Shown here: positions 292 through 64,000 of the stretch, one piece after another
Layout: each line of letters opens with the position of its first letter
Numbering within the stretch: position 1 is the first letter of the stretch
Assembly: GCA_973895155.1 (NCBI GenBank)
Contig: OZ316895.1
Coordinates: forward strand, 6,932,184 to 6,996,183
Length of the DNA stretch: 64,000 nt
Reading direction: 5' to 3'
From: Marsupella aquatica
Taxonomy: Eukaryota > Plantae > Marchantiophyta
Notes under the pieces: generated by a model
Database searches by the model: none
Seen by the model: the letters and a program-made list of their open reading frames with translations, nothing else
What the model was told of the DNA's origin: nothing
Program-made: the position numbers and the translations under genes

Positions 292-3170
<2,879 letters not shown>

Positions 3171-4421: not shown

Positions 4422-4486
4422 TCAGACTTGTTTATGGCAAATTTGTGCATATAGTTTGTCATAAAGTTTGCCATAAACAAGTCTGA
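4422..4486. repeat. Perfect 20-bp inverted repeat (hairpin)
   Basis: TCAGACTTGTTTATGGCAAA (4422-4441) is the exact reverse complement of TTTGCCATAAACAAGTCTGA (4467-4486); the 25-nt spacer is partly self-complementary. Confidence 0.9.
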
Positions 4487-6326
4487 TAAAACCCAGCATT
4501 TTACAATTCGCCACTGCACCTGGAAAAGCTACTCCGGGCATCGTCTTAAAAATGAGCTTCCTTCCAAAAGCGTCTGATCAGTGTGAAGTGAGACAGCCTA
4601 TGTGAATAGTCCATGCGGATGATTGGGCAAAACAAACACTCGTCCATTTTATGAAAATACAAGTGGCGGAAAAGGATTTGGGCAGAACAAATCTAGCTGA
4701 ATTTTCTGAAACAGGACATTACAATATTCAAGTGGCAAAAAAGGCATAACCATAAAATGACGCTGTAGAGGACTAGAGCAGCTATGCACAAATTATAAAT
4801 AGTGTAAATGTACTTTTAAGTAGAACTCCATAATTATGTGCTGTCGAGTACAATTGTCTATTTTACACACATGCGTACTGTGGTGTACTTTGGCTTGCTC
4901 CAGTACCCAGGTGAGATAGGTGAGATGAGACATTGATACAACCTTTAATTTGTTAAATCGAATGGTCCTAAAAAAAGTGTGTTTTCAATAGAAAGGTCAA
5001 GATTTGATCCCACCGTTTTCAAATTTTTTAAGCAGACGAAAGCAAGAAAATAGCGGGATCTTGTATTATATATAATGCTTGATATATGTTGCACAACAAC
5101 GTTTATTATGTGTCGATCTTTTACAGTCAATGATATCAGTTCCTCAATGACATGATCTCATACTGATCGAATGCCATATTTTGCGTACACAATGATATCA
5201 ATTCCTTAATGACATCTCATACTGAATGCCATATTTTGCGTTGCTGCGTGTCTTATGCAGCACAAAGATATTGAGCTTGTATGCAATAAACATGCAATAT
5301 GTTCTGTGCAACACAAAGGTATGCAACTAGTTTGCAATAAGCTAGTTTGCAATAGATGTACAAATGAGAAGGAGCGGACTTGCCAAATGGAAGGAACGAG
5401 AGTTAAACAAAATAAGCCAAACCTACATGGCAGCTGTGCCAAAAGGCAATATCCCTATTAACCAAGAGCCAAGCCAGAATGTCTTGAGTGGATCTACTTA
5501 ATTATAATACTCCCAGCTTAAAGTCCGACTATCCACGAGGTTCGGAGAGTACAAAATTCAGCAATTTTTTTTGTTATTTACTTATTTTCGTAACGAGGAT
5601 GACCAAGTTTTGCTTCGAGCACAATGGATGTTGATCAGTATTCTCACATTGTAATGCATAAATGTAACACAATGGATGAGTAAGTAATAATTTACGTAAT
5701 TTGGCCTGTGTTTCAAAGCTGCCTACTAGCTTGAGGAATTAAAATTTGTTGCGGTTATAAGTTCCCCATTTGTATGAGGACACCTCCTGACCGCCAAACT
5801 CATTTAACGATAAACTCATAAAGCTAATGAGCAAGACAATATATTTGCTAATAGTTTAAAAGTCAGAAACTGCGACAAATTAAGACTGCCTTCAGCAATT
5901 TCCGTCAGGTTTACATAGAAAAAGACTTTCAAGTGGTTGAGCGAATCACACTCTCGTCTTCTGTAGCCAGCACGAGAAAATATGAGTACGTGACGGGAGG
6001 TGACAATTTACTCGATATTTTCTATGCTGGACTCGTATCTAAAACTTTATCTGTTGCAAAGAGACGGCTGCTTAATTTCAGCTCGATCAGGCCACTCCAT
6101 TTCTGTCAGCACATGCAGGGCATCGCTTTTGATAGTCTGAGAGCTAGTACCCTCGAGACCAGGAGGAGAATCCCAATGACAGAGGTTTGGAATGCAGTTT
6201 AAGTAGTGTAAGGCAGATGTGCTCCGTTGGTCGCCCGGTTGCTCGCAGTCTACATTACCTTCAAGACAGTTTGCGCACCCACCAGTTGGTTAACTTCCTG
6301 CGTTCACACCCGAGATTAAAGCAGTC

Positions 6327-11912
<5,586 letters not shown>

Positions 11913-14378: not shown

Positions 14379-18683
<4,305 letters not shown>

Positions 18684-41583: not shown

Positions 41584-44500
41584 TGTAGTTTGCTATGAAG
41601 AACCAAAAATACATTTAAAGGTCTTCAAACTCGGTATTCGTTCCCGTAAAGAACAAGATGGGGTTGGTTTGATAAATTTAAACAATAATAAAGAACTAAA
41701 TATGTTTTCCACACATAGTAATCAAGTTTGATTACTTTACTAAGGTATTTTGAAGATCGCTCCACAGCGGTGAGTAGTTTTCAATGATAACTCAGCATCA
41801 TGTAATCATAAATTAATGAAAAGGGAATGATTAACAAAACACAAGGGAAAATATCTTAAAGTATGCTAACTAAGGGAGCCTGGAATTGACCAAGGTTGCT
41901 CCTTAGACATAAGTGAAAATGAAAAGACTTAAGGATTCAAATCCATATTGCTTTTCAGGTCTAAAATGCTTACTAGAGTACTCCTTTAAAGTGCCGTCAA
42001 CACGTCTTGTCTTTTCTTTCTAAGTGGTACTCAGACAAGATCTAAAAGAGTGACTACTTCAACATTTAGATGGTACTAAGCAACATGAAAGAAAATCCAT
42101 CAATTTCAATAAGGCTTAAACTCAATGAGTTAACTTTAAGAACTCAAGAGATTGCAATGAGTCACCAACAAGGAATCTGTCATTACAACTCAAAAGATTT
42201 GCACAAAAGGAATTTTACTTCCTGTGTTTATAATCATAGGTAAAAACACAAGAAGGAGGTAAGTCTCTCCAAATGTTAAACCTGATCTCGAACTCATAGA
42301 TTCATGATCAACTAGTTTAACACAAGGAAAAGGCAAAAATGCATAACTTAACCATAAACTACACTAGTGGTGAAGGGGTCTTATAGTAAAAATCTACAGA
42401 GTGAGAGGTCATAGGGTCGAAGAGACATGCCTCTTCATACTCCTCAAAAAGTCAAAATAGCAATTCAGCCAGTGAAAAGCTAGAAAAGTGGCTAAGTATG
42501 AACCCGTAAACCCTTAAAAGCGTAAAAGCGTAAAAACGTATAAGCGTAAAAGCGTATTCCAGTACACTTAAAAACTTAGCAAATTCAACTATTTTTAACT
42601 TTCTACTCTTGGTCTGGAAAACTCTGAAATTTTGCCAGCAGGTTTTCCTAGGTACAAACTACCTATTGAAGAAGTCTCATAGCTTTTAAAGCTCTATAAC
42701 ACATTTTGAAAAATAGGGAAAGATGCACTATTCTTAAAACTAACTAAAAACACTTAGACTACTCCTCAAACTTGTTGTCGGATGTCTTCTGGTTCGAGAA
42801 GCTCCACGAGGGTAACAGTCCGAGCTTGAGTAACTTCCATCAGCTCAGCCTGGCGTGGGGATCCTCGAGAGTAGGGTAGGCATCTCAATTGCCTTTCAGG
42901 ATACATCAGGGGCATTCTCTTCCTTAGATAACATATGTCTATTCGAAGAGCTTCTCTATATATCCCAATCACGTCATAATTATTGCAAGTAGCAGCATAT
43001 ATTTGGGGATAATGGTATAGGAATTCATCAGAGTTCAGCATCCTGGAATAGAAAGGGTGAAGCCTCCATTTGACATCTCTGAAATATCGGTTGAAGCTCG
43101 CTAGAGTTTGAGAGGTGACATTGTTCCAGATTCTCTGTTTCTCAACTAATGAACTGGTTGAAACAAGGGTAACCTTGGGCTCTCGAGGAAGGTAAGCGTT
43201 TTGGGAAGAAGTAGATTTCTTACTCTGCATGAGAAAAGAAACCACAAAATCTAGGGCATAAGCTGCCAAATTTCCAAAATATGCCAGGACTAAATCTGGA
43301 TCCTCCACCTCTACATCACCTTGAAGTAGCATCACAGCAAGAATAGGTCGGAAGTAGAGAGAGTCAGTCTAGAACTCATCAAATTGTGCCATCTCCAATC
43401 TGGAAGTTCCAAAACACCTGAGGTCGAAGATATAACTGGCCTCTGTCTTCTTGAGATAGTAGTATTTCCAGAACTCTCCAACCGGTGGTCTGTTGGCCTG
43501 CATAATCTTACAGGTCTCCGCATACCTGTGCACTTGGGACTCTGGATGTCTCGGGTATCTACTCTCGATGGTGGCATTCCGGGGTGTCTGAGTAGATGAG
43601 GTGACAACTGCTACTAAGTTTGGATTGGATCTTAAGGCAGTATCAACATCTTCAAATCCTTGCCTTGGGGATGACTCAAGAGAATTATCATAAGATCTAT
43701 AAGTTTCACCATCTGAGGGTGGATCAGAGTCTTCAAGTAGATCCTCTCTGTCGTAAGGGTGCTCATATTATGACCGATTGTAGGTGGGTCCTTCTGTGGG
43801 TTCGTAGTTGGAATCAGGGCTGTAAGGTTGCGAACCTGGGCTAGGAGTGGGACTAGCAGTTGGACATTGTTGGATCAAGTTGCGGACCACGGATGCTATC
43901 TGTCGAGGTTCACACTGAAGTATTTCTAGCAAGTCATCCACAATGGCCACACAGCTGGTACTATCTGCTACTGGAACAGGTTCACTTGTTTCTAGGGGAG
44001 GGGGCTATACAATGACAGGAGTACAGATCACAAACTCCATTGGTGCTGGTTCTCTTAGGGAAGAGGTCATTCTGACAGGACTTAGCTGATCATGAAATGG
44101 TGATCTCAAACTAACAGCCTCCATTCTCAAATTATTAACAGCATCATACAGTCCATCATCACTGTAACTGAGGAGAGATGTCAACTTATCAATAAGCTGC
44201 TGATTCGACTCTGCCTTCGAAGGAGTGGACCTGGTGGTCACATGAGGAGTAGCATCAGTTGGTGTAGCAACATCGTCTTGTTGATGAATGTTCCTTACTC
44301 CTTCAACTTCTAGTGGATCTGCACCTATGGTCCGACTGGGAGAATGCTCATCACTCATTGGATGGTTATCGACTTCCCTGCTATGCATAGGAGAATGTGT
44401 AGGGACTTCTAATGAAGTATCCTCCATAGGAACATCAGCATTCTCCTCAACGTTCTGATCATTCGAATTCAATGGGGTGACATGTACAATGTCCTCCATA

Positions 44501-45598
44501 GGAATTTCTTCTTCAATACCCAAGTCAATCAGGAGTAACCCCCTCTCTGTCTCTTCCTCCAGATATAAATAGTCATGGGTATAATAGAGCTGAGAGAGAT
44601 AATTCTGTAAGCAAGTGGTCCTCCCTGCTTCCAAGCTCCTTACTTGATCCTTCATTACATTAAACAGAAGTAGGGCCCAATTTACTTTTATAGCTCCACT
44701 GTGAGCAACTACAATGGTGTTAGCCAAGGCCACAGGACAGAGAGTTGGCTTTTTCGGATGAAGAATGGGTACCAGAAATTCCATGAGTACCCTCAATTCA
44801 GGATAAGTACACTGGGACAAGTTCCAACCATTCTTGGTATTTCGAGTTCCTGAGAAGTATGGAGTAGATAAGTCCTGCTTCTTGGAATATAATGCCTCTC
44901 CTTCTGACGGGCATCCAAAGGCGTAAGCAATTTGCTCAACAGTCCACAGGCTGGGGTGAGCTCGAATCGTTCGCCTGAATTCAATCGGGATGATAGTCCC
45001 CTTCACAAAATCCTGCAAGTAGGAGTCGAGCTTGACATTCCAGGGGATCTTGAGCAAGCGCTCCAATCCTAAGTGCTGTAAAGAGTCTTGTAGATTAGAA
45101 AGACTATCAGGCGCTCGTGGTATACGAGCTGCCACTACTTTTGAGACTGCTAGAGCTTCAATTTGATACTGTTCCTCAACACCCAGGTTAGCCATAGCTG
45201 CGACGGTGATTTGCGTGCTGTGAAGGTTGCTTTCGAAGAGAAAGAGCAAGTGAATAGGGGTGGTGAAAATACTGGAGTGATCGCCTGAACTCTGTGCTCA
45301 ATTCCTATCAAGGTATGAAGTCCCCAATCCGTTTCTAAGTCCTGTTGTGAAGTTAGCCGTAGCGCCGTAACGTACACTTTCCGTAAACGTGTAAGGTGTA
45401 GGCCGTAACCCGTATTGGCGTAACTTAAATACCGCGTAAACCCGTAAACCCATAAACGCGTAACTCGTATACGCGTAACTCGTATATGCGTAAACGCATA
45501 ATAGAGTACTTGTAACTAAGTTGGAATAAGGTTTAAACACCGTAAAAAGTTCAAAATTTTCAGTAATTTCAGGTTTTCGGTATTACCCACTACTCACA
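41584..45598 (-). mobile_element. ORF-bearing TG...CA insertion 1 (putative long solo LTR, 4015 bp)
   Basis: ATAAT|TGTAGT...CTCACA|ATAAT (TSD 41579-41583 and 45599-45603). In ORF sense it reads TGTGAG...ACTACA, matching the other two inserts. The TSD is AT-rich, so this call is weaker. Confidence 0.65.
42766..45249 (-). pseudogene. Long ORF of insertion 1 (retroelement accessory protein family), broken by in-frame stops
   Basis: ORF pieces 45249-44005, 43950-43768 and 43335-42766 share one frame. The N-domain (LGLERLLKIPW...IAYAFGCP...KNGW...C...LMEFL...NWA...L..YLSQLY) resembles the ORFs at 52934-53773 and 57634-59502. Confidence 0.65.
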
Positions 45599-45762: not shown

Positions 45763-46135
45763 ACTACCCAATATTACTAACATGCACCTCAAACAAAATT
45801 AATTATCAGCCCGGCCCCCATTTCGTATTTGGGTTAGTATAATTAACTTGTGTATGGGTTCCTGTTGCCATGTGGTAAGTTGCTACTAGCTAGCCTTAAT
45901 TTGTCACGACCCCCTTTCCAATCCCTCTGTGTTTTCTCCCCACCAGGACTTGCAACTATGCCCTGCAATGGGGAAGGAGGGGTGAGGAGGTCACGGAGAG
46001 TCAAGGCTAGCCAGCAGCAACTTGCCACATGGCAATGGGAAGTCGCATATGAGTTAATAGTAACCCAAATACAAATGAGGGGCGGGTTATTGATCATTAA
46101 TTTTGTATTGGAGCACACTACTAATATTGGTTAGT
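45763..46135. repeat. ~370-bp imperfect fold-back palindrome
   Basis: 45865-45897 vs 46003-46035 pair at 30/33; outer arms 45763-45776 vs 46122-46135 pair at 13/14; weaker pairing continues toward the centre (~45950). Confidence 0.85.
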
Positions 46136-47050: not shown

Positions 47051-50000
47051 TTGTTTACTGGGTTGTGCCATGTAAATAACCATTGTAAATAAGCCGTTTT
47101 TTTTGTTTTTTAGTTAATTCTGTCATTATCGGTTGCTATGCCCCGGAGGTCTCTACTTACTTTTATATCCTAATAGTTCGGATGGCTAAGGCTCCCCAGC
47201 AAGCAAGACTGTTGGGACCTTTAAAATAGGGTCGGTCTAATCGGACACCCCGTTTCCCTTAGGCCATTATTTCCTTGTTATTTTCTTGAGACCCCAATAA
47301 ACAAGAAGCCTTAAGGGATGAGTCCAAAGCCTTATTTCTCTTTTCAAAATCTTCATGATATTCAAAAATGTGTACCAAAAAACCACCCAAAAATGGTATG
47401 TATTTTCCAAACTAGACTCAAGAGAATTTTACCACCAAAATCTAACCATATCTTATATGATATTCTCACAATTGTATAAACCTTGAAATATGCACTTTAT
47501 AAAAGTAGACAAAATCAAACTCTTCGATCAGAGTTTAAGTCAAACTCAAAGTTTTACAGAATATAACCCAACTTAACCCCAAGTGGTTTCAAATGCTACA
47601 AGTCCCCCTATTTACCTAGTCTAATCCAAAGGGACCGCTTCCCCTTCCTCGGTTCCGGAAGTCCCTGCCATCAATTCTGGAACAATTGTGGCATCGTCAA
47701 CCACGCTATCCTCTCCGGCCTGAGGAATGTCTTCCTCACTATCCTCATCCGTCTCCCCCTGTTTGTCTTCCTCTTCAATGTTATCTGCAAGGTTAAGAAT
47801 CCTCCCTTTCAACACACTGCTCTGTCGCTCGTCAATCTCAATGGCAACGCAATGTCTCCCCATGGCCAAGGAGGAGGTTGTCCCAGTCCCTGATCCTGAA
47901 CAAATATCCAAAACCCAGTCTCCAACCTGACTAAAATGACTCACTTCCCAATCTAACAATGCACGTGGTTTCTGATAGACATTCACTGCCTTGTTATCCC
48001 CGTTGTGTTTCAGCTTCTTAGTCACACCTGCGCATACAACCACATTGTTCCTGGATTCATTTGTGTCAAAATTGAAGTGCTCCAATGACCGTTTACCATC
48101 TTGGCTGTGAAAGCCAATTGTAAAGCACTCAAAGTTGTTGTTCAATCTTGGCCCACCAGCATTCTTCACATTACCCTTAACCCTGAAAAGTCACAAAAAG
48201 TCAAGGAGTCATTTAAACTTAGAAACATGGATCATGAAATCATGAATAACTAATAATTGTTTTTTTCAAAAACAAATATTTCTTACCACACACAATTCTG
48301 GAACCCTCCATTACACTCCACTTTCAAAACGGTCTTGATGGCCTCATATTGGTCAAGGCTATGGTGAATGATAATATGCCACAACTTCGCAGTAGTAGCC
48401 ACCTTGAAAGATTGGATCATTTTTGTGATCTCCTCAATTCCCCATCCAGTAGTGTCCTCATGAAGACATCTAGGCAATGCAAACCTGTAGGGGATATCCA
48501 CTAAAGCTAATGTGTAAGCCCGACCCGGAACCACCTCGTGTAATTGCTGAGCATCATGAGTAAAAATATCATAGTGCACATCACCAAACTCTCGATGCTC
48601 AAAAGAATTTGGATGAAGTTCCCCCTCTTGGGTTTGCCAACTAGAAGTCTTCATGGATAGCCAATTTTGCGCTTGCACAATATGCGCATTGAATTTGTCC
48701 GGGAATGACTTGAGATCTTTGCCTTCCTCATCTCCCTTCTTTTTCTGGGAGGTGGTATCTTTCTACAAAAGGGAACCTTACAATTAGAAACAAGGATTCC
48801 AAATATTCAATGAATTCAAACAATCATTCAAAGAAAGGTGACAGAATCTTACCCATGTCTGGAAACAGGTACGAAATTCTTAAGCACATTGTCTGTGCAA
48901 TGCTCAGGGTACTTGGTTTTACAACCTGACCAACTCTCCTCGTGTAGACACGTGAGGAAGGCCTTCTGCACCTGCATCTGAAATTTGTGTCGAGTAAATT
49001 CCTGACCCATTTCTTGTAAAGAGAGTTCTTTAGTAAGAACTCTCTGTAACATTGGGCAAATCATATCAGGATCTTTCAAGGCCTGCATGTGTCTCCACTC
49101 TGTTAATTTCATGTCCTCATAAGGCAATTTGGCATCTCCAGACTTAGAGACTTTCTTCTTGCCCTTGTCTCCTTTTTGACCTTTGATCTCACACATCTCC
49201 CACTTGTCACAAATCTGCCTCACAAATGACCACACAGGATCTTGTCGGAATGCCAACTGAAATAGGTTATCGTTGGCATTAAGAACCTCAACATCCTTCT
49301 GCACACCCCAATCCTTGAGATTGATTTCAGTAGCACACTCTTTCTTGAAATCCTGGTTGGACGACAATCCATTCTCCACAAATCTCATGTGAATATAATT
49401 TACTCTCTGGATTGTCGTCATTTGTTGTCGAAATTCAGAATCAATATTGTGACTCCACGCCAAGTTTCTTGCCTCTTGCACACTCAATCCTGCAAATATC
49501 CAAGATTGCACTCTCCGAAATGCCTTGTTGTTAGGGAACTGAAGAGCAAGGTCTGATTTGGCACAGGCTGAATGGTTGCCCCCAATCACATAATAATGGT
49601 AATCAGATTTCCTTGAAAAATCAAAGTCTTGCCTAGTAGCACACTCCTTCGGATCCACCAAGAGGACAAATGGAGCTGCAAGTGGACTGGCACCTACAGT
49701 CTTCATCCGCAAGGTCAATTGGGTCAAAAATATGGTTGGATGTGTCAAACCTGGTAAATGGGCAAGCCCACAGCCTTCTCTCTCACTGGAGGGTAAAGTT
49801 GACCAATGTCAACCGTCACGGTCTCCTCTTGAACACCACATCTTCCCAGAATCTCCTCCTGGTACAATACCCGTGCATCCATTGACATTGATTGAGCCTT
49901 TTGCTCCAAATGCGTTGTGGTGCGTCCCATGGCTCCCCAAACACAAGAAACCCCCCGCACAAGCCGATTCCCGCAGGTTTTGTGCTCGACGAGGCCATTT

Positions 50001-50605
50001 CCGTGGCTTAGCGGTATGGGACGCTGCTAACTTCCTTCTACTACTATTATTAACATTTTACACACATATACTGGACAGATCCTTCATCGGGTCATGAGAT
50101 ACGTAGTCGGCCTAATCTAGGCCTTCTCTTGTCTTTCCCTCCTATTGGTTAGGTATATTTGGATTCCGCCGCCGGAATGATCCCCAATTGGCTTGGTTAA
50201 GCCGCTAAGACCTCTCTCAGCTCGACACATCCAACTCTCACTCCCTTGCTTACTTCCCTTCTTCTACTTGTTGATGTGAGCACTCTTCACACAAGTTAAT
50301 GCGACACACAAATAGCAAAATGACTCCTTCTGACTGAGTTATACCATGCACTTGCAATACAAACAGTACGTCTCATACACAAGCTCTGCGAACTAAGCCA
50401 TGAGGCCAACTCTATTCAGTTCTTAGGTATGAGGAAACATGAATATACACAAGGGTCATTGTATAACTAACCGAGAGCTTCTCTTACTACTTGATCCCAG
50501 CCCGGCTGGTGCAACTAAAAACTTGCTAAAGAAGAGGCCCGGAACTCCCCGCAGCCCAGGTACTTATCCTGGCTGTGGATCCGCCTGATTCCTTGCAGCG
50601 TAGGC

Positions 50606-50678
50606 CTAATTTACCTACTGTAATCTACCTAATTGTAATCTACCTAACTGTCATCTACCTAACTGTCATCTACCTATG
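50606..50678 (+). repeat. ~15-bp tandem repeat (tacctaactgtcatc), about 5 copies
   Basis: Visible directly, just downstream of the long ORF in insertion 2. Confidence 0.8.
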
Positions 50679-50863
50679 TATAGCGAGGCAGGAGCACAAG
50701 TGTCGCCCTTACCCGTGGATCCGAAATCCCACTAATCTAAGTGTCAGGGCCATCTCCTGGTCCTGATCCTAAGTCTAAACTTGGAGATCAGTGCCCGCCC
50801 TGCCCACTCATGCCTCCTACCTCCACGTCCGCCCTCCCTAAAAGGGACGGCGCCCTTACACCA

Positions 50864-53800
50864 TCACGACACCGGTGGCTGGTCCTCAATGGACGCCCCC
50901 AACGCTTCCTCCGCAGCCACTGCCGTTGGTCCGTCCTCTGACAGATTACCTGCCCCAGACCGAGTCAACTCTTCATCGGCCTGACTGGGTCCACCCTCGG
51001 CTTCGGCCTCAGCATCGGCCACGGCCTCTGATACGGCTAAGGCCTCCCCGATATGTTCTAGTGGAGGATCCGGTACCTCGGCAGCATTACTGGTTTTCCC
51101 GGCCTCAACCTTGCCATCCCCACTTCCTAGGACTGGTGGATCCACCGCCATGTCGATGCCAGAGGTTGGTGCCAGGTTTACCTTCTTGGTCACAACGGCT
51201 TGAGAAGCCGTATAACTCCCAGACCCAGAAGGTTTCCGCTTCTTCTTCTTCCCTATTTTGACAGCCGGTTCCTTCCCCTTGCCACTTACCTCCGGCACCG
51301 GGGTGAGTGTCTCGGCTTGTCCTTCGGCCAATACTACCCCCGGTAACTGGGTTCCCCCAATTGGAGTTGGACCTGATGAAGCCAAGCATTTAAATACTAC
51401 GGCTTGTTTCTTCAGCCGCTCCGTTTGGTTGTCGGCCTGCCGTTGTAGGTTCTCCATCTTCCTCGTGATTTCCTCCAACTCCTCCTGGGTCTCATCCAGG
51501 TCCTTGCGCGCCTCCTCCAGCTCTTTATTGGCTTCCTCCAATTCTTTCTTTAAGGTAGCCCTCTCCTCCTGGGTTGCTCTTAGCTCCTTGTCGAGCTCTG
51601 CTACGACCACAGACTCCATCTTATTCATCTTGGCATAAGTCTGGTCGAGCTGGTCGTCCTTTTCACGCAAGTCGGCCTTGAAGCTGGCCGTCAGGGATGC
51701 AAGCTCCTGCTGCAGCGCAATAATCCCTTGATAGGATTTCCCTAACTCTGCTTCCTTTTGCTCAAGGGCTCCGCGGATATCTTCGAGCTCTCCTTTCAAC
51801 GCCCTCTCCCTTCTCTGAGTCTCCGCCATGGTCCGGTTGTTGGCGGTTAAAGGGGCCTCCTCTATGTCCCTTAGCTCCCGCTTCCATTTCTCTCTTTCTT
51901 TGACTGCGTCGGCCAACTCTCCTTGGGTCCGAGTCAGTTTATCTTTCATAATCTGATTGTCAGACTGAGCGGTATCCAACTGCCCCTACATGATGTTTAG
52001 CTCATGCCGCTTAATCCGCAACTCATCTTGGGTTTTCTTGGCCGCCTTCAGGTCTTCCACCTCGGCTTCCATCTCCCTAAGCCGTCGGATGACCTCGTCC
52101 TTCTTGCTTCTTTCCAAAGCCACCGCTTCTTCTAATCGGTGCTTTTCCAACATCTCCCTCTGGAAAAAGGGTCCCTGCTCCAACTCCTCCCCAAAGATGC
52201 TAAGCGCCAGGTCCCCACACATCTCCCCGTACTCCATGGCTCTATCCTTAGCATAGGTGGAGTAACTAGAAGTCATCGGCATCAACCACCACGGCCTCTG
52301 GTCCCAAGCCGCCTTGCGGATTTCTTCTACGGTGGCAAGAGGGTTGCTTCTTTTTTCGGCAAGCCGCCTGATGTCCTCCGGCCAATCTCCTCCTCGTAAA
52401 TCTTTCTCCCTAGCCAGGGCTGCTTTCTCTTTCTCCCTAAGTCGCTCCTGAAATTCTTGTGTCGTCTGCTTTATGCCGTCAAAGCTCGGGGGAGCAACCT
52501 CTGGTGGGGGAGCCTCGGGGCTACTCTGCTGGGTGGGGTCCCCTCGAACTACTCTTGGAAGTGTGGGGATAAATCGGCCATAGGTCCTTACTCTTGGAAC
52601 ATGATGATCCGACCCATAGCCGGAGTTATCATTGCTGTAGTCCTCCACCACCTCCTCCACTACTTGGACTCCCGACTTCTCCCTTTGTTCCCCTGGTCCT
52701 GTCGTGAAAACGGCCTTACAGATCATGGGCTCTGGTTCCTCTGGTTTCCAGGCTGTCGTCTCCCTGTTCTTTCCGCGGGGAGGAGCCTTTGGCTGCTCTG
52801 CCTCTGATTCGGGGCTTGAGGCTCCCACGTACCTTCGCACTCCCGGCTTGTGTTCTGGCCTAAATCTCTCCTTGGTTCCGGTAAAGGGGTCTTCCCTTCT
52901 GAGTCGGCTTAGGCCAACCTCTGGGGCAGCATCCTATATCGATGCCGTTGCCATTGCCGGAACCAGTGCCGATGCCGTTCTCTTTTCCTTCTCCAGCAAT
53001 TTCAGCAGATTTTGCATGCCTGGTTGCTGCATCGGCAAGTCTTCTTTCCTTGGCCGAAACACCTGCTCGATCGTCGGACTATCAGGCTGGTTGGGCTTCT
53101 CTGGTGCCGGCCCTTGCTCCGTAACCTCCTCTGGTGCCCTTGCCGATAGGGGAAGTACTGGGGCAAAGATTTGACTTCTGGCATACCAGCACAACAGTGG
53201 CATGTGATAGCCAAGCCGGGACACGCTTCCCATGCCGATCACCTGCTGTTCCTCCTTCAAGATTTTCTTTAGTTGGTTGAGGAGGTACCCGTTGTAATCC
53301 TGGCTTGGGTCTGGCCTTTCTGCCAGGTAGACCTGAGCCTTGCCGATCTCTGCCCTCGGCAAGTTACAGTGCATGGTCACCCGCAAGAAATCGATCATCT
53401 CTCCGATGTGCGGGTTGGTGTAGGTGTTCCAGAAGAAGCCATTCTTCGTTGATGGTCCTGGGAACGACCGGAATTCCTTGTCAGGTAAGGTCTTCCTGGT
53501 ATCAACCTTGGTCTTATTACCCATCGGCAAGCCAAACACCTCGGCAATCACCCGGGGAGTGAGAAAGAAATCCTTCCCATACACCCTCGTGGAATTGGTC
53601 TCGGGTTCCCATGATCCCACAAATTCTAATAAGTCTGAGTCCGGCACCTCCGGCTTCAGCCATGGTAATCTTACGAAGGCTTCCAAGCCGGATCTGGCCA
53701 TGAAGCCCTGGTACTTCTTGGTCTGCATGGCCGTACAGCATGCATCCTCCTCCCGTGCAAAGTGTAATTGCACTTCCTCCGGTAGGGTCGCCGCCCAGCC

Positions 53801-53990
53801 TTTCCAGGTGTCATCGTTTGTTGGAATGGCATTGATGGGATTGACCTCTTCCTCTTCGGCTTCTCCCTTTGTCCTGCTCTGCTGGCTTCCTAGGTGCCGC
53901 CGACCTCGTTCTTTTTGCCGGGGTGGCCTCCTCGTTGTTGTTTCCTTTCCTCTTCATCTCGGCTGCCGTGGATGTTTCTCCTAGCAAGGT
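50864..53990 (-). pseudogene. ~1000-aa ORF of insertion 2 (conserved N-domain, Pro/Glu linker, long coiled coil), split by in-frame TAG stops
   Basis: ORFs 53773-52934, 52840-51986 and 51979-50864 are in one frame, separated by TAG codons. N-domain GLEAFVRLPW...EFVGSW...VYGKDFFLT...VFGLP...KNGF...IDFLRVTMH..PRAEI. A separate 113-aa ORF lies upstream (54027-54368). Confidence 0.75.
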
Positions 53991-55613
53991 TGCCTTCGTC
54001 CACCCCTCCATGTTACCCTTCAACTCCTAGTGTAGGTTGTTGCAGCAATTGATGGCTTCCCGGATGCCGATGATTCTATTTTTGCAAAATAGAAGGTCGT
54101 CGAGCTGATTGGCAGTAGGAGTCCACAAGAACTTGGCCTTGATAAGTTCTCCTCCTAAGAAAGCCGTCTTCTGCAGTTCCCAGAGCCGAGCGAGCTCCTG
54201 CCATTCTCGAGCTGCTCTCTCTGATTCTTCGTCCTCGTAAGTCCTGACGTACTCACTTGCCCGTTCGAACAGGCATCCCCAAAAATGTGCCGCTTGATTG
54301 ACGTTGCTCATACCCTCCTTGAGTCGATTGTTGGTATCTGTTCCCACCCCGAGTGCTTGCCTAAGCAACTGACAATATTTGGCCCCCCGTAGTTGTCTGC
54401 CCAGTTCGTTCTTGCAAATGAGCCACTATTCCTCGCAAGCGGTCCTTACCCCTCTCCTCCTCTGGTCTTCCCTCCCGTTGGTCACCCCTAGCCGCCGACG
54501 CTTAGCGCGCCCTAACCCTAATTGTGTTCTCTCCCCCGACATCCTTACTTCCGGCCTCGGCCCGGGTTCCATAGTCACCCTTAATTGTTTAAATTTTCCT
54601 TGTTTTTGTTCCTATACTAAGGTGTTTCCAGGGTACACTCCTACTTTACCATGTAAACCGGCCTAGTGATTCCTGGCTAGGCATCACATGCGTCAAAATT
54701 TTCTCCAAAGTCTTCTTTTTTGACTTTGGAGCACTGGGCTTGGCAGGCTCAGGAGTCATAGCAGGTCACTTCTTTGAAGAAGTACGAGTTCCAGTCGTAC
54801 CTTTCCAACCCACCTGTCAAAGCCGTTCCTAGGGATGATCTGCCAACTTGAGATCCCCCTCCAGATGCTGCTACTTCACGGGAGGTTGTAGGCGCTACCA
54901 CGGTCAAAATGTCATCGGGTAAAATGCTAGGCCTGGATCCAGAAGGAACACCGGAAGCCCCAGATTTGGGAGGACAACTTACCCCCTTCTCTGCCGATCT
55001 TTTTCGGAGAATCTCTCGTGATTTTCGGATTGCACTCTTTAAAGTGCTAGCGTGGAATTCGAACACAAAATCGGAAATCTTTCCTGCGACGTCGTGGTAA
55101 CGTTCCTCACTCGAAAGAGACTTGACAATCTCAATGATGCTATCGATGTCCTCATCGAGATAGAAGGTGGCAGCCGTTCTAGAAAACCTCTCCACATCCA
55201 CCACAATCAAAGTTGACATTTCCTTCGTTGTGATCAACATGTTCACAACTTCGTCTCCCTTCGAAATACATCAATACGGCCATAATTGACCCACCCTAAT
55301 GCCCCCGATGGAAGCCCCTCAAATACACACAACATTAGGAAGGGCTTCTTCCATGTTTCCGTCCCTAAGGAAATCGTCCAGGATGAGTTGTGGAAGTCCG
55401 TCAAAGGATGGCGCGAAAAGATGTCATCCACCAGCTCTTCCTGTGACATTGTCATGTTCTCGCCTGATCTTTAAAACCTGAAAACATACCACAAAATCAG
55501 TCCACTTCAACCCCAACCTGCGAGATAAAGTGCCATAGAACCAAAGAATGTGCCAACAAATGGCTACTAAAGCCGTGTCCTTATGGATCTAACAATGCTC
55601 TCGGCCACCCCAG

Positions 55614-56160
55614 GACTCCTACCATGAATTCATGAAGGGAGTCTCCCTCTTGCACCGACCTTCATGAATTCATGAAGGGAGTCTCTTCTCTCTTTGCATG
55701 TACACCTTGGAGATTCAGAAGGGTATTGAAAATGGGGTGCGGAGGGAGGGTGATGTGAAGAAATCTCCCAGGGTCTAAATTACTACCTAAAATAGGGTCG
55801 AAATGAAGCGCGACCACGATAACTTGCGACACATCGCCGATGAGTGCTGAAAATGGCACGAAATTGGACAGCGAGATTGTTTTTCACTCTTTTACAAAGG
55901 AAATCCAAATGACATCGAGTGAAAATGAATGTGCTACCCCGTGTTACTTGGTTATACATACTAATCATGGATCAGGCGCGACTTAGTAAAATTAACACCA
56001 AATCATGATAAATCAATGTTTTCGAGCCAATTATTCATGAATATTTTGGCGTATTAACGAGAAAAATTTCATGAATTTCATGAATATCTGATATTTTGAA
56101 GTTAAGAAGTCCCGACAATCCGTGAAAAACTATAAATAGGCTCGTTTATTCATGACTCTT
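55614..56160. promoter_or_regulatory. Divergent promoter region with clustered CATGAATTCATG/TTCATGAA palindromes and a TATA box
   Basis: Imperfect 30-bp palindrome at 55614-55643, perfect 20-bp CCTTCATGAATTCATGAAGG at 55659-55678, TATTCATGAATA at 56032-56043, TTCATGAATTTCATGAA at 56068-56084; TATAAATA at 56131, about 100 bp before ATG 56236. Confidence 0.6.
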
Positions 56161-56635
56161 GGTCATTATTTTGAGGAGATTTGTTAGATTTTACTAATTT
56201 TCTTAGTTTCTTGTCAATTTGCACTAGTTTTTCCAATGGCGGCATGTTATGAATCAGATGATTATTCAGATGGAGTTTCTGATGATGTTTCATTGCCGGA
56301 TGGCCCATGCACAGTGGTTGCCCTAGATATCCCTAGAATAACTACTATTTTAGATATGCCACCCCCACCCCTATGAGCAAGTTAAAACGTACTCCTTTAC
56401 GACTTGCAATTAGTGGGAAGAAATCATTGGTCGGTGGTAAGGAGAGGTCAGGGAGCTCCTCTGACTCCTTGGAGAGTATCGGTCCCCCTGGACGTCAAGT
56501 TGTGTCTCCTTTGTCACCAACAAAGGACAATTTGGGTAGTAATGTGGAAGGTTCAATGTCTATTGGGATGTCTGGGAAACGGTCTCATGAATTCATGAAG
56601 ACTGGATTTGGAAAGACGAAGAAGGCACTAAGTGG

Positions 56636-59600
56636 TGTGACACGGGTAACGTGTCACTTGACCGAACCCAGGTCGTAGATTAGGACTTATACGGTCATTA
56701 GGACCGTAGCCATAGTGTAGAATAGCACGTATAGCCGTCTATTGCCATTATGATTAGATTAGGAGTAGGTTAAGATGATCGAATCATTACGAGTTCAGGA
56801 AGGGGATTATTACGCGCGACCGAGGTACGGTGGCGGCAGCGGAGTAAAAATCAGTTAGAAGAATCACGCTTGGACCGAGGCGCCGACTTCAGCTCGCTAT
56901 CAATGACCAAAACGGCCTGGCCTTCTCACGCTCGGGCTCATCCTGGCACCTTCATAAGAGAGGAGCCGATGGTGCTGCGGGCCATTTGCTCATGTCTACC
57001 TTTCTTTGAATTCGCGGACGTTGCCACCCACTCGCCCTGCTGATCGAATCGAGTCGACCTTTACAAGGAGATTATCGAGGGAGAAGAGCGGAATGTGGCG
57101 AGATTTAGTCAGGACGAGCGAGGCCTCCACGAGACAGAGGACCAGCCGGGTGGGAACGCGGACTCAACGAACTGGACTATGAGGTTAGTATGACCCTCAC
57201 AGCCTTGGGATTTTGGACCTTGTTTGGTGAGGTAGGTGCTAAGTTCTCCGAGACTTACTGGTACTCTTCCCCCGAGAAAGCCGCTTACAAACGAAGGTAC
57301 GCAAAGCTGGTAACCAAGGTAGCACTGGTTAATTGCAAAAGGACAGCCATCACCAGGGATTCTAGCTACAACGAGCTGTGAGACTACATCACCGAACTAT
57401 ATCTCAGCAAAGAAGGGCTTAGATCGGTAGCAGAGGCGATTCTTGAGGTTCCAACGAAGTTCTTTAAGCTGAAGAGCAACCAACGGCTTACTCAAGCGGA
57501 GTTCGACAAGATTCTGGGGTACCTAGACCAGCAGATTGCAGCCAAAAAGCGCCAGGAAGACATCAGCAGACAACGGGAAGCGGCGCGTAATCTCACGTTC
57601 CTTGGGGAAAGCTCCAACGCCTTCAACTGGGATATGGCTACCCCGATACCACCAGTGCCTCAACCAATGACCACCGGAGTACCGCCGAACCAGTCCCAAG
57701 TCCGTCCAGTAATCAACACGGAGTGTTCTTCAGGTTCCGAGCGAGCTAGTCCGCAACTCAAACAGCATCCTCGTAAGTGGCCAAGGACTACGACGGCCCC
57801 CGAATCAACACGGACCGACGCAGCGCCTACGCCTGCCCTGCCAAACCCCCCGACCAACCAGACCCGACGGCCCCTGGATAACCCGAAGTCCAACTTATTA
57901 CAGGTAATCCGCGTCCCCGAGGTAGTCTGGATCGCGATCAAGAAACTCAAACATGCAGACTATCTCAAGGAGCATCAGTTGGAGCGGTTTGCCCACTTGC
58001 TATGGAGGCCGTGCACCACCGGGCCAAAGGAGATTTGTGAGTTCATCTCCAATTTCGACACTGACGCGTCGACCACCAAGGTTTCGGGGCAAGCTTTATC
58101 ACTCACGGAGCATCGGTTAACGCAAATCTTCTGCCTACCAACCGGGCCGGTGCCGGTGGAAATCCAAATTCGGGATAAGGAGTATACGCCGCGGCACTTC
58201 AAACCTGAGGGTAAGACGGACAACGGATACAAGCAGGGGGCGTGCACCAACTTAACCTGTATGGAGCGGCTTAACTTCATACAGACTACCCTACACATGA
58301 TTGAGCCACGATCCGAGATTTCCCTCTGCACGATCGTGCAGGTGGAACAGTACAAACGACAAAACTGGGCCCAATTCTTCTACCAAAGATTCTCGGGGGA
58401 GCTGAAGCGGGCTCAGGGTGGTATGGCTATTGGGGGGAAGACTTACTTGGGAAGTCATATCGCCATTATCCTCGCCTGGTACAAGGCACGGCGGGAGGCC
58501 AAAGGAAAGAATATGGCCACCTCAGCCCTGGGTAATGTCACCCCCACCCCAGAGGAGGCAACCCCGACTACGCGGACTACCGTCCCTCGGGCAAACCCCG
58601 AGCCGGAAGCCCCGACTAATACTCCGCCATCGCCCCCTGTGGAAATTCCACCGCCCCCTTCCGTCGAGCCTCCGCTATCCGCAGTACAACCACCCCCAAT
58701 CCCTCCACCACCTGAAGAGACCTTCCCCTCCCCAACGCTGACTACGGAGGAGCTCATTGCCCCTGCCGAGGAACCACCGGTACCCGAGAAGATGGAGGAC
58801 TACCAAGTAGCCCAGGGGACCATGGCCTACGACCTGGTCCAGAAGTTTAGCCACACTATGTCTGGGGAGCTGGCGGCGTACATCGGACAACAAGTCTCGG
58901 CGTACTTTCAACCAACCTTCTTCATGTTAGAGCACCAACCACGGATCGTAAGCCACCTGGAAGAAGAACTCATGGCGAAGGGGAATGAGATCGGGCGCCT
59001 CCAGATGTTGGTAGAGCACCTCGAGGAGGAGGCAACAACCAGATGTGAGGAGTTAGTCCGCACCGTCGAACAGAGGGACGGACTAAACCAGGAGTTAAGC
59101 GGAGCGCAGGTCGAACTCAAGAAGCTGGATGACACCGTGCTTCAATTACGCTCAGAATCTTCGGCTCGGGTTACCAGCCTGACCGACCTCAACAAACAAT
59201 TCCTGCAGATAGCACAGCAGGTGGCTAGTCTCTCCGCCGAACGAGATAAATTGCTAGCGCAGGACCAGGTCCATCGCGACGCCATCGACCAGCTCAACTT
59301 GGAGGTAGCGCGGCTCCAGACCGAGGCCGATGAAGCTGCAAACAAGGCGGAGGAAGCAGTACGGGACAACAAGGCTTTGCAGGACCGCATTACCCTGCTC
59401 ATCCTCCAACGGGGAAAACCTGGGCCCACCTTTGATCAAGGCGGCTCGAGGTCTCGTCCCGACAAGGGGACCAGCCCTGGTCCAACCACTGCACGCACGT
59501 AAGGGGTAGTTAGCAAAGGGTGGAAGCAGGCGCCGCGCGAGGCAGTTAAGTCAGCGACATCTTTTGGTTAGGCGTAACGATAGAATGACTGTCATTAGGC

Positions 59601-60484
59601 GCCGATTAGCGGCAGTAAGAAGAATTAGGGCCAGATCAGTTAGGATCAGCCAACGTAGGATAGAGTCCATCAACGGACTAGAATTTGTCAGTAGGATTGG
59701 CCGCTGCCATCCCGGTCAGCACCTTGTCGTCGACGGTCAACCAGTCAGTACGGCGCGACTAGTAGTCAGTAGGTAGTTAGTCAGTAGGTAGTATCCCGGA
59801 AGGCAGTATCCTCTGGCTCTCCTCCGCGATTGTAGTATTTAGGCTTCCCCTTCCGCTAAGGAAGGGGAGAAGGCTTAGTTATCTCAGCAGAGGGAAGGTG
59901 AGGCACGGGGAGTCCTGGCCTGAGCAGGGTCAGAGTGCACCAAGGAGTGAGAGCCAGAGTCGAGCTTGCTGGGCAAGTGCGAGGCAGGGCCTCGTAGAGA
60001 CTGGGCATCGACTGCCGTTGGGCCTGCTGACCCCCTTTGAAGTCGAGTCAACCATGTAAACTGATGCTTTGCTGAGTAAATGTAGTCTTTTCCCCCTAAT
60101 GTTTCTGCAAGTAACTGGTGTTGTGTGTATGCTTTGTCTGGGTAAAGGCGCCATTTTAAGGGACGTACCGGGTGCGGACTAATGGTAGGGATTGCCACTC
60201 ATTGTATGTCACAAGGTCCTGTCGTGTCGATGGCTTGAAAGGCCCCAAGCCGGGAGTTAGTCCGAGTCACTAACTGAGGGAATATTCCAGCGGTGGAAAA
60301 CAAATATACCTATGACTAGTACGAATTATTCAGGTGTTATACCGGTAAGTATATCGACTTAGCCCGACTTAGGGCTAATTGAGGTCACTACACACCTCCT
60401 TGCCCGAACCCCTCACCCTTACTGGTGGTCGAGGTCGCACCATGGCACTAAACTGGATTTAAGGCCCAGGTTAGCGGCACGACA
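56636..60484 (+). mobile_element. ORF-bearing TG...CA insertion 3 (putative long solo LTR, 3849 bp) inside the transposase gene
   Basis: AGTGG|TGTGAC...ACGACA|AGTGG (TSD 56631-56635 and 60485-60489). Excision restores the host frame. No internal terminal direct repeats and no gag/pol seen. Confidence 0.92.
57634..59502 (+). CDS. Intact 622-aa ORF of insertion 3: conserved N-domain, Pro-rich linker, coiled coil
   Basis: LERFAHLLW...EFISNFD...KVSGQALSLT...IFCLP.G...NGY...LNFIQTTLH..PRSEI...NWA...YLGSHI aligns by eye with the 279-aa ORF at 52934-53773; heptad-rich C-terminus. Confidence 0.8.
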   Translation: MATPIPPVPQPMTTGVPPNQSQVRPVINTECSSGSERASPQLKQHPRKWPRTTTAPESTRTDAAPTPALPNPPTNQTRRPLDNPKSNLLQVIRVPEVVWIAIKKLKHADYLKEHQLERFAHLLWRPCTTGPKEICEFISNFDTDASTTKVSGQALSLTEHRLTQIFCLPTGPVPVEIQIRDKEYTPRHFKPEGKTDNGYKQGACTNLTCMERLNFIQTTLHMIEPRSEISLCTIVQVEQYKRQNWAQFFYQRFSGELKRAQGGMAIGGKTYLGSHIAIILAWYKARREAKGKNMATSALGNVTPTPEEATPTTRTTVPRANPEPEAPTNTPPSPPVEIPPPPSVEPPLSAVQPPPIPPPPEETFPSPTLTTEELIAPAEEPPVPEKMEDYQVAQGTMAYDLVQKFSHTMSGELAAYIGQQVSAYFQPTFFMLEHQPRIVSHLEEELMAKGNEIGRLQMLVEHLEEEATTRCEELVRTVEQRDGLNQELSGAQVELKKLDDTVLQLRSESSARVTSLTDLNKQFLQIAQQVASLSAERDKLLAQDQVHRDAIDQLNLEVARLQTEADEAANKAEEAVRDNKALQDRITLLILQRGKPGPTFDQGGSRSRPDKGTSPGPTTART

Positions 60485-63400
60485 AGTGGGCCAAATGACG
60501 GAGATTTTTGCAGTCTCCAAAGTGTTCAGCGGCTGAAGCAAATGCCAAAAAGTAAAACCTTTGGTAAGCCAACGTCGGAAACATTTCACAGGGGAATGAG
60601 GGAAGAAACTAGACAACCAGTGTTATTGAAAAGTATTCCAGAAAGGAATTCTAATGTGTGTTCCTCATTTTTACCTGGGAGTCATGGTGTTGGGGCAGGG
60701 AGCGGATCAAGTCACGGAAACTCAAACAGGGAAACCAACCTGGTGGAGAGGGCCCCTAGGAAAATATTGAAAGGGTCCTTACACGGTAATGGAGGGATTT
60801 CTGAAATACGCCCAGGTATTCCAAGGCTGCATAGAGTGAAGGAAGAGCCTCCATCTCCGAAGGCTGCAGGTCTGGAATCTCGGGATGTTCAGAAGAAAAT
60901 GTTGGTGACCATTTCATCATCGAATGATAGCGAGTCTTCGGAGAGTGAGGAGGATGATGATGTTCCAGTGGCATCTAGTCGTTACAAACGTACGAGCAAC
61001 GCCACTTTGTGTGAAACAAAGTTGAAAGAGGAGGATATCAAGAAAACAAATAGTAAGTACTGTTGTTAGAGTCATTGTCTCCTAAGTCTATCTCCAAAAG
61101 AAATTCGTGAGGCGCGTTCTAAATTTTTGAGGTAGAAATCTCAGGATCGATCTTTATCTTTGTAGTGGCTTATAAAGCAAGACGGAAATGAAGGAGGGAG
61201 GCAAACTATATCTCACACGTTTGGTCAAAAGAGTATTTATCAGAAAGCTTTCAAGCTTATATTTTGCGTTGGCAATCAGAGATTAAATAGAATTTTGAAA
61301 TTAGACAACCAAGACTTAGGATATTCTAAACCAGTTGGACACCCTCCAGCTGTTAAAAGATTAGTCTTGGTCAGTTGGCTTAGGTCATTTTTTGAGACAC
61401 GCGTGGAAACATTGCCAAATAAAGAAGTTTCACATTTACCGAGTAATTATTCAAAGCTGGAGGTATGAAAGATCTACGATTCCAACCATGCCAAGATTGA
61501 TGAATCATCAAAAATATCCTATCGACAATTCTTGAAAGTTTGGGCTCAAGAATTTGGTCATGTGAAGATTCCTCCAGTCAGTCGATTCAGTGCTTGCGCG
61601 GATTGCGAGGAGTTCAAATCAATTCGGGACAAAGCTGTCTCGGAGACCGAAAAAAGTAAGTTACTTACAAGTTTGACAAGTTTTTTGTTTCAAGAATATG
61701 GCTTAGCACATGATTTCTATTTTTTTGAAGAAACTAACAAGTTGTTTTTCCAGGGCGAGGGGAGATTATGTTACAAATACATAGAGACCAACAATCCAAA
61801 GAACGTGAGAAACTCGCAAAGCATCGTAAGAAATGATTTTCAAATCCTGATAAATATTTGGGAGTTGTCATTGATGGGGTGGATCAGAAGAAGACAAGGT
61901 TGCCTCATTGGCCGCGTCCCCCAAAATCGGTGGACGAAACATGTTTGATCCAAATGCACGTTGTCGGATGCCTGGTTTTCAATGATGCACTATTTTCAAG
62001 AGTATTTCTTAATTATCCTGTATTGCATAATGATGGAAACTTGACAGTCACAATCCTGCAAAGGGTGTTTCACGAATGGGAAGAAAAGCCTGGTGGCTTG
62101 CCGCCTGTTCTCTATCTTCAACTTGATAATACCAGTAGAGAAAATAAAAATAATTTACTCTTTGCCTATCTTCATATGTTAATTCGAAGAAAGGTTTTTC
62201 GGAAAATCAAACTAGGATTCTTGTTGGTTGGACACACACACGACCAAATAGATCAAATGTTCAGTCGATTTTCTAAACGACTAGCAAGGTTTAAGGCATT
62301 CACATACGAAAGCCTATGTGATATTATTTGCGAATCATATCAACCCCAACCAAATATCACTCTTTTAAAGGAAACATATGATTTCCGTCAATATGCCTTC
62401 TTAGATCCACCTTTAGTCATTGAAAGGATTTGAAATGTTACCTTCCACCACCAGTACAAATTTGCACTTGACAAGTTGGAAGATCAAGTTCCAACCCAAT
62501 GGGGGAAGAAGTTTTCCACGGACTCAACTTGGAAACCTGACGGAGGCGTGAAATTTTTAGGGAAGAGGAGCCAGAAAAGGTGATGGGTTGTGCTCCCGGA
62601 TTACCCCTTTTCAAAAAGGGGGATAAGAACGTTACAAGGACTCAACCAAATATGTCTAGTTCTTCAAGAATGACTTTGAAGGAGATGGATGATTCGTTAA
62701 ATGAGATTCAAAAGGGAATACTTGCAGTTGAAACTTTATTCTCAGAAGAGGAAGTGAACTGGTGGAGAATGTTTTTTGAAGAGCAGTGGGAATTGAATAA
62801 ATCCTTGCTCCTTGATCAAAGACCATTGATTTTCCCTTTTCAATGGCCATGTTCCCAAGGGGAGATTGCTGTTGCTGCTGAAGTTCCCAGAGTCCTTGTC
62901 AATGAAGAGGAAATTGAAGAGAGAGTATACGGACCTACCAGAGATATATACGTGGGTCCTTATCGGAATCAAGGAAAGATAGATGCAGAGAAGGAGAATA
63001 TGGAAGGAGACTTTTCCGATCTTGAAGTCAACACTTATATTTCTGTTGCTAGAGATGTTGTCAACTTTTCCTTTTTCAAATTGCCTTTACCACTTATTCA
63101 TGAATTCATGGTTAAAGTTTCTTGAGAAATTTTTAGTTTAATATTTTCTTAGTGGGTTGTGTTTCAATTCAATTGGATGGTGTCATTTCTATCCTCCTTG
63201 TCTTCTTTTCACAATAATGTGTATCAGGCTAAGTTGTAGTAGTTTATTTTCTGGTTTTTAAATGACAATGGCTTTTGGAGGTGATTTAGTTATCGGTTCA
63301 AGAGACAGCTCGTGTAATTGTGAGACCATTGTAGATAATAGTGTTGTATTTGAGGTCATTTATTGGTGGAATGTATTTTCAGATAAATTTGGTCATTTTT

Positions 63401-64000
63401 AGGCTATCAAAACATAGCTAGTTTATGTCATATTTTGTTCGCTCCATATTTTTGTTCTAAAATAGGTGCTAATTTTGGCACTTTTTCTGACTTTTTCGTT
63501 GTTTTTCTGATTTTTTGGCTAGAGTTCCTAAAGTATGGGCTTGTTACTCATCATTTAAGGCTTCTTGTTAATAGCCAGGTCGCGGTGAGGGGTGCTTTGG
63601 TGTGTTGTTTTGAGTATTTAGGGGGAGAGCCCCGTAGTAGTGAGGGGGGGAACTCAGTCTAGTGTTTGCTTAGGGAAGTTAGCTCATAGCCAGAATAGGG
63701 AATCAAGCCAGAGTAGTGAGGTAAAGGTGTAGCACTTGCCCCAGTGAGGCAGTAGTTGTACAGACGGCAGGAGACCGGGTTGTCCTTGCAATGTGTTACT
63801 ACGTTTTGCCAAAAGATATGGATTTGGTTTGATTCCTCAAGTTTTGGTGTTACCTTTTCTGGTTCACAATTGTGTTCTTTCCCCAAGAAGCGTCTAAGGA
63901 ATCCTTGCACGGTTTGGTCAACCATGTGAGTAGGAGGGGTGGTGATAGCACTCCACCAACAACCAGTAGGAGTGTGTGTGTGTGTGTGGCGTAGTCCATG

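Follow-up and report, generated by a model that had tools for sequence, protein, structure and literature searches.

What is a gene that joins a ParB-like domain to a DNA methylase, in the manner of prokaryotes, doing in the genome of the liverwort Marsupella aquatica? The window analyzed here, meaning the whole stretch under study, comprises 64,000 nucleotides of contig OZ316895.1 (assembly GCA_973895155.1, positions 6,932,184 to 6,996,183 of the forward strand), and the gene lies on its minus strand. A first-pass annotation, made from the letters alone, described a long-resident, "eukaryotised" gene with a variant catalytic motif, perhaps a clamp-loaded or spreading methylase. We find instead that it is an accessory gene of a multi-copy plant transposon with terminal inverted repeats (TIRs), and that the copy in the window is a dead pseudogene. 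The protein made by working copies probably dimerizes, binds palindromes of its own element and adds N6-methyladenine (6mA) in their vicinity.

The features of the element are collected in Table 1. The transposase and methylase genes stand head-to-head, and both lie within the 32-bp inverted repeats. At the left end (47298-47300) contigs from public runs X3 and X6 diverge into unrelated flanks, and the summed depth steps up at the same point in four of four runs (285 to 4,780 in X1, 855 to 16,044 in X2, 119 to 1,097 in X3 and 0 to 60 in X6). Contigs of the element reach depths of 484-621 in X3, against 15 for the flank contig, and of ~1,600 in X1, against 44; read as the rough guide to copy number that contig depth provides, these values suggest tens of near-identical copies in the genome. 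Sister copies, represented by contigs from the public runs, lack insertions A and B (each in three of four runs). The element likely belongs to the Sola1 group: it has a TIR (32 bp) and a 4-bp duplication (AATA/AATA), as expected of Sola1 (a 3-bp TAA duplication, with the termini one base further in, fits the same copy) and its transposase carries a D-D-GHTH motif set, which we take to be Sola-type; no informative sequence match to the transposase was found in the PDB. One X3 contig (depth 294, with 23 letters on its short side) joins 56602 to 63510, and could represent a derivative that has lost the transposase while retaining the methylase gene.

The linkage between the two genes is old. At a related locus, L001, where exon 1 is 69% identical, the methylase gene again stands head-to-head with a transposase gene of the same N-terminus. 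Three named ParB-type homologues in Riccia sorocarpa (R1sor_010796, 022317 and 014303) lie one, two and six locus tags, respectively, from DUF7869 genes, an arrangement with a simulated chance of ~1e-6 post hoc, or 1.5e-4 for two genes within two tags. These odds were set against 46 DUF7869 tags among the matches listed, and the true odds are weaker because 120 of 284 matches were listed and transposons cluster.

The motifs DIPY, DICSGSGT and GGNHS were all located on the minus strand where they had been reported, the motif order being IV (DIPY), X (VYQKP), I (DICSGSGT), II (IEID). Both GT-AG introns were also confirmed, with junctions deduced from homologue DNA and positions kept in L001 and in a second related locus, L002; intron 2 falls within a Trp codon (CVW|VK), in the correct phase. 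The proposal that 47621..49915 is a whole, intact gene did not hold. A 4.8-kb insertion (4,773 bp), with its edge at 49915, separates approximately the first 255 codons from the rest, and the homologues carry ~290 additional N-terminal residues that match 55455-54689 of the window. The 3' part of exon 1 contains a TGA (49747-49745) and frameshifts at ~49727 and ~48862, and the 5' part a frameshift at ~55250 and a stop or shift at ~54750; the frameshift at ~48862 also puts intron 1 of the window copy out of frame. Both lesions of the 3' part (49745-49727 and ~48862) are absent from seven homologues, 616-658 aa long, which read YQIRHIQxYFL opposite the TGA and frameshift of the first and, at the intron-1 donor, NFVPxFxxW opposite the frameshift of the second. 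The sister-copy contigs carry an extra base at 48862 and at 49725-49727 in four of four runs, so that the two frameshifts are lacking there. Alternative splicing that skips the lesions was considered and rejected because homologues and sister copies read continuously through them.

Table 1. Features of the Sola1-like transposon copy in the Marsupella aquatica window (positions in the window; motifs on the minus strand are given from high to low)
Feature	Positions	Strand	Evidence or remark
Left target-site duplication, AATA	47296..47299	+	Sequence
Full extent of the Sola1-like DNA transposon, 16,270 bp (7,648 bp minus the two nested insertions)	47300..63569	.	Termini AACAAG...CTTGTT, AATA on both sides
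Left terminal inverted repeat, 32 bp, 27/32 identical to the right arm	47300..47331	+	Inverted-repeat comparison
Methylase gene, exon 3: VYQKP, DICSGSGT (47908-47885), IEID, acidic tail, stop	47621..48182	-	Motifs and Pfam
Intron 2, GT-AG, 104 nt, holding an exact palindrome (48232-48245)	48183..48286	-	Same position in L001 and L002
Exon 2: start of methylase domain, motif IV DIPY (48498-48487)	48287..48762	-	Motif comparison
Intron 1, GT-AG, 90 nt, out of frame here	48763..48852	-	Homologue comparison
Exon 1, 3' part: ParB-fold domain (GGNHS, 49583-49569), then helical DNA-binding-like domain	48853..49915	-	Homologues and models
Nested insertion A, 4,773 bp, TG...CA ends, TGCGT 5-bp duplication, very deep in public runs, splits exon 1	49916..54688	.	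Contig joint 49917-54697, 3/4 runs
Exon 1, 5' part: ATG at 55455, N-terminal domain, low-complexity linker	54689..55455	-	Homologue tblastn matches, E 7e-13 to 2e-5
Intergenic region of the divergent gene pair	55456..56235	.	Palindromes at 55622 (one mismatch) and 55662 (exact)
Broken DUF7869 (DDE-type, Sola1-like) transposase gene, start MAACYE..SDDVSLP, core 61759-62559; 3' end approximate	56236..63125	+	Pfam PF25273, E 1.4e-49
Nested insertion B, 3,849 bp, TG...CA ends, AGTGG 5-bp duplication, splits transposase gene	56636..60484	.	Contig joint 56629-60484, 3/4 runs
One-mismatch palindromes	55622 (intergenic), 63098 (transposase gene)
Right terminal inverted repeat	63538..63569	-	Inverted-repeat comparison
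Right target-site duplication, AATA	63570..63573	+	Sequence

To what protein does the gene correspond when it is whole? Pfam N6_N4_Mtase (PF01555) matches exon 3 (E 1.3e-8, 35.5 bits against a cut-off of 26.7), and sequence searches of Pfam and the PDB detected no ParB domain in the protein. The Atlas scores of the ParB-like domain were 0.97 and 0.95 for unnamed eukaryotic clusters, 0.93 for DUF3723 and 0.92 for ParB_N (35% of members). Structure prediction recovered both halves of the fusion named by the first-pass annotation, placing the methylase in the permuted Rossmann fold of the beta class and giving exon 1 the fold of a ParB N-terminal domain with, after it, a helical DNA-binding domain. 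The model of a full-length homologue (P0079; mean predicted local distance difference test score, pLDDT, 80.7) matches CcrM at Z 24.0 (root-mean-square deviation, rmsd, 3.0 Å over 228 aligned residues), then M.BceJIV (Z 23.0), M.MboII, M1.HpyAVI and the rotifer N4-cytosine (N4C) enzyme. The model of an exon-1 homologue (P0002, mean pLDDT 80.5) matches 13 ParB, Noc and KorB entries at a middling Z of 8.0-9.7, several of them spanning both domains, as for KorB 8qa9_B (Z 9.2, rmsd 4.5, 200 residues aligned over the N-domain and DNA-binding domain), and including ParB 7bm8_A (Z 9.6, rmsd 2.5, 98 aligned). SerK and Srx rank behind these (Z 6-7.5), and among the Foldseek matches listed for P0002 all those at E <= 0.001 are ParB or Noc chains; its N-terminal domain (170 residues) gave weak matches only (SANTA at Z 4.8, PH/PTB folds at Z 3-4). 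A homodimer through the ParB N-domain is also predicted: the two-copy model of P0002 residues 290-640 scored 0.63 where the best control scored 0.00, its runs had at least 42% of their contacts in common and its pLDDT was at least 73. Of solved homo-pairs, 21 of 30 reach the mark that it passed, and of single chains none of 23 (17 of 29 and none of 30 for eukaryotes), although the pass may reflect likeness because ParB dimers have already been solved. As a side observation, DUF3723, against which the ParB-like domain at 49250-49736 scores as given above, is a family conserved in the cargo of fungal Starship transposons; it may be a ParB-fold relative, and we note it as a lead only.

A profile search retrieved 761 representatives at E <= 0.001. 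The named sources among 20 that were looked up are Chara, Riccia, Adiantum, Ginkgo, Ptychodera, Actinia, Holothuria and an amoebozoan transcriptome, and a Ceratopteris protein is a further relative. In a tree built by a quick method rather than a careful search, the named streptophyte rows join the clade of the window (26 rows, SH-aLRT 91), apart from the animals (8 rows, 90). Comparison across the family shows that the residues once thought deviant are ordinary: both GGNHS and DIPY are family consensus, not decay. GGNHS is present in seven of seven close homologues, and GGNHS or GGSHS in all ten related loci (L001-L010), while Arg follows GxH in only 2 of the 71 rows aligned (the other residues at that place including Ser in 37, Thr in 10, Gly in 6, Cys in 5 and Asn in 5). 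Motif IV reads D-I-P-x in all five loci that reach it, and DIPY in three of these (L001, L002 and L004) as in the window; wider relatives have DAPY, DFPY, DIPH, DFPC or DPPY, in a census on the wide alignment A4 that omits four misaligned DIPY exon-2 fragments. DIPY is moreover the motif IV of HindIII-like N6-adenine methylases (PMC12294265), and is predicted from sequence to be compatible with activity. DICSGSGT is likewise no anomaly, since motif I begins DLC in 19 of the 24 exon-3 homologues that cover it and DPF in none.

The gene family is under purifying selection: pN (nonsynonymous differences per site) is 0.11-0.24 against pS (synonymous) of 0.69-0.77 in the coding comparisons, and omega, the ratio of the two rates, is 0.062 for L001/L002 and 0.075 for window/L002, with window/L001 saturated; the synonymous rate is rough because synonymous sites are near saturation. 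The earlier view of a long-resident gene of prokaryotic type therefore stands, given its kept introns, its omega of ~0.06-0.08 and its range from Chara to Ginkgo and animals, but the gene is accessory to a TIR transposon, and its reading as a "eukaryotised" host gene is not supported. Extra introns occur in some lineages (at approximately 2079-2310 in L001 and 1023-1124 in L002, and also in L003, L004 and L006), one in the N-terminal domain and others in the helical and methylase parts, which points to intron gain or loss within this transposon gene family.

The element also contains a candidate binding site for the ParB-like part, proposed from the distribution of a palindrome. TCATG-N4-CATGA occurs exactly three times in the 7.65-kb element (48232-48245, 55662 and 56585) and six times with one mismatch, and the exact form is absent from the 47.3-kb left flank and from both insertions. 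Exact copies number four in L001 and three in L002, against a simulated mean of 0.01 and maximum of 1. Their placement recurs too: in the window, L001 and L002 alike, two sites spaced 40-42 bp apart precede the methylase gene and another lies in intron 2, and both the window and L001 have more of them toward the 5' end of the transposase gene. The spacer is lineage-specific, mainly AATT, ATAT/ATTT or CTAG. Counts of CATG, GATC, GANTC and AAGCTT in the element, taken as clues to the methylation target, showed no consistent enrichment.

We thus favor, as the probable reading, a dead copy of a transposon accessory gene whose working relatives act on their own element, a reading for which Ectocarpus Sola1-1_Ec32, described below, is a precedent. 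Their protein would likely dimerize via the ParB N-domain, and its ParB-like part would likely bind the TCATG-N4-CATGA palindromes, presumably loading without cytidine triphosphate (CTP), because the box-II arginine is lost. The methylase would then likely write 6mA nearby, adenine seeming the better candidate than cytosine. The mark would serve the element, for example by keeping the promoter shared by the transposase and methylase genes from host silencing, or by setting expression. Several observations weigh against this account. Motif IV is no strict guide to whether an enzyme methylates adenine or cytosine, and the matches of the methylase model include the rotifer N4C enzyme (Z 20.8). 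Animal relatives have decayed motifs (DMPQ, DTPQ, DVPN, DKPK) and plants vary (DIPH, DIPR, DFPC), so catalysis is dispensable in some lineages. The palindrome pattern was chosen from the window, L001 and L002 being the independent tests, its exact form is absent from the eight more distant loci L003-L010, and it could be a site for the transposase or a host factor. The folds and dimer were modeled on homologues rather than on the window copy; L001 carries a stop of its own; and the sister contigs clear the insertions and two of the frameshifts, which leaves a fully intact copy in the M. aquatica genome putative. The right end of the element is placed by its inverted repeat and duplication, and the transposase is assigned to Sola1 tentatively, from its Pfam DUF7869 match and motif set. 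A broader version of the account, in which Sola1-like transposons have carried a read-write system since the charophyte-land-plant ancestor, an Arg-less ParB dimer on a parS-like palindrome writing 6mA on its own promoter and so escaping silencing, is possible and is put forward tentatively.

Other readings fit parts of the same evidence. A clamp gated by CTP or adenosine triphosphate (ATP) could load at the palindromes, slide and spread methylation along the element, as the first-pass annotation had surmised. The homologue model does have a ParB N-domain and DNA-binding-domain fold, and it is predicted to dimerize through the N-domain (although resemblance to ParB dimers already solved may account for this); the palindromes are parS-sized; and 52 of 63 rows retain the upstream Q/E-I/V-R arginine, with a box-III-like Asn in most rows (on our mapping of the boxes). 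The idea is nonetheless weakened because the box-II arginine is absent family-wide, being replaced in 69 of 71 rows; an R-to-A change at box II abolished nucleoside triphosphate (NTP) binding in the binders tested (bioRxiv 2025.10.10.680097), and phage ParB activators of thymine dioxygenases function without the NTP-binding residues (PMC13229309). We consider such a clamp unlikely. The protein might equally be a site-specific DNA-binding regulator, whether repressor, anti-silencer or transposition scaffold, with a methylase domain that is inactive or structural, as could be expected from the animal homologues that keep the fusion without a catalytic motif IV and from palindromes that cluster, operator-like, between divergent genes. 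This is improbable for the clade of the window, which retains motifs IV, X, I and II, with exons 2 and 3 under the same selection as exon 1 (pN 0.10-0.11 in each of the three, L001/L002) and with the DIPY used by characterized restriction-modification methylases (PMC12294265). Finally, the gene could be a methylase domesticated by the host, as Marchantia MpDN4MT1 is, that works genome-wide in sperm and lies next to a transposase by chance; it would share the beta-class fold, the introns and the old residence in streptophytes. It would leave unexplained the inverted ends, target duplication, many near-identical copies and repeated DUF7869 linkage; MpDN4MT1 has TSPPY and no extra domains, the window copy is broken, and nothing in the analysis connects the methylase gene of the window with sperm. 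This reading is very improbable and, at the window locus, largely refuted.

The window also holds features apart from the two genes. Insertions A and B, both of high depth, each contain open reading frames (ORFs) with coiled-coil tails that are mutually related (26% identity, E 2e-19), and they share a 35-bp motif near one end, 83% identical and in opposite orientation (50150-50184 and 60278-60312). A search inside both found no pair of long terminal repeats (LTRs); they could be solo LTRs of great length, or else some other element of the integrase type. A ~3-kb unit at 42500-45500 lies between two arrays (42501-42557 and 45431-45501) of a telomere-like repeat of 8 bp, and its 430-aa ORF (44005-45297, minus strand) shows weak kinship to the insertion ORFs (E 2e-4 and 1e-3). 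A ~275-bp fold-back at 45811-46086 resembles a miniature inverted-repeat transposable element. Subtilisin- and glucanase-like genes were recognized from their ORFs, in keeping with a land-plant host, with a subtilisin-like gene duplicated in tandem at 200-12500 (spacing ~8.77 kb, 84-96% identical).

The searched literature yielded no description of a ParB-methylase transposon in land plants; Repbase reports, subscription journals and bioRxiv supplements lay outside its scope and may hold one. The methylase gene adds a new land-plant member to an already known class of accessory genes in transposons, a class whose function is a proposal: algal genome papers have suggested that transposon ParB-methylases bind and mark their own DNA, without a test reported in their accessible parts. 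The present analysis adds that the family ranges across the streptophytes, that it keeps its catalytic motif, that the ParB arginine has been lost throughout it and that a candidate binding site is conserved; this site persists even within an intron in three lineages whose synonymous sites are near saturation. The family suits testing, with a compact 7.6-kb element, recently amplified sister copies and a motif known from working enzymes. If the proposal is correct, plant transposons would have a second route, besides the VANDAL anti-silencing proteins, by which to edit their own epigenetic state. There would also be a defined enzyme for 6mA, a mark under debate in plant DNA, and, on the broader version of the account, a source of it in plant genomes that transposons encode and target by sequence.

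Among known systems, the phage and prophage fusions of ParB_N to N6_N4_Mtase share the domain order and beta-class methylase of the plant family (bioRxiv 2025.10.10.680097), and a ParB-like motif precedes the methylase in 50 of the 80 best viral loci. As described there and in the viral loci, these fusions differ in being ~400-460 aa long and intron-free, with DPPY and a retained GHxR arginine. No close viral donor was found, because none of the 80 viral loci matches the plant-family ParB profile; viral contigs and phage genomes gave generic beta methylases only. M.HindIII, M.EcoVIII and M.PsaI share DIPY and the beta-class motif order but are stand-alone restriction-modification enzymes, and the shared DIPY may be convergent (PMC12294265). 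MpDN4MT1 and the rotifer N4CMT are also eukaryotic beta-class amino-methylases of bacterial origin; they differ as SPPY-bearing, N4-cytosine host enzymes with no ParB domain (bioRxiv 2021.02.12.428880, PMC8885841). A chlorophyte Dam fused to a ParB-helix-turn-helix module falls in a different methylase group (Iyer et al., PMC4738411). The Plavaka transposons of Bostrychia, with their accessory genes PAG2 and PAG3, bear a PF01555 methylase and a ParB-like domain together with inverted-repeat arrays proposed as ParB sites; there, the ParB domain is fused to a 2-oxoglutarate (2OG) oxygenase and the methylase to SET, in separate genes of an EnSpm-type element (bioRxiv 2025.02.11.637652). In Ectocarpus Sola1-1_Ec32, a gene for a ParB-like domain and an N4C/N6A methyltransferase lies opposite the transposase, and its authors propose self-binding and self-modification; the termini are AACCG-CGGTT, the 4-bp duplication is biased to end in A and the best transposase hit is Sola1-1_PPa (PMC12477816). 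That element is from a brown alga and is larger (21.5 kb, with a 282-bp imperfect TIR and a protein of 1,104 aa, against 7.65 kb and a 32-bp TIR in the plant element), but, compared by description, it has in common with the Marsupella element the fusion on the strand opposite the transposase, termini that begin AAC and a 4-bp duplication ending in A.

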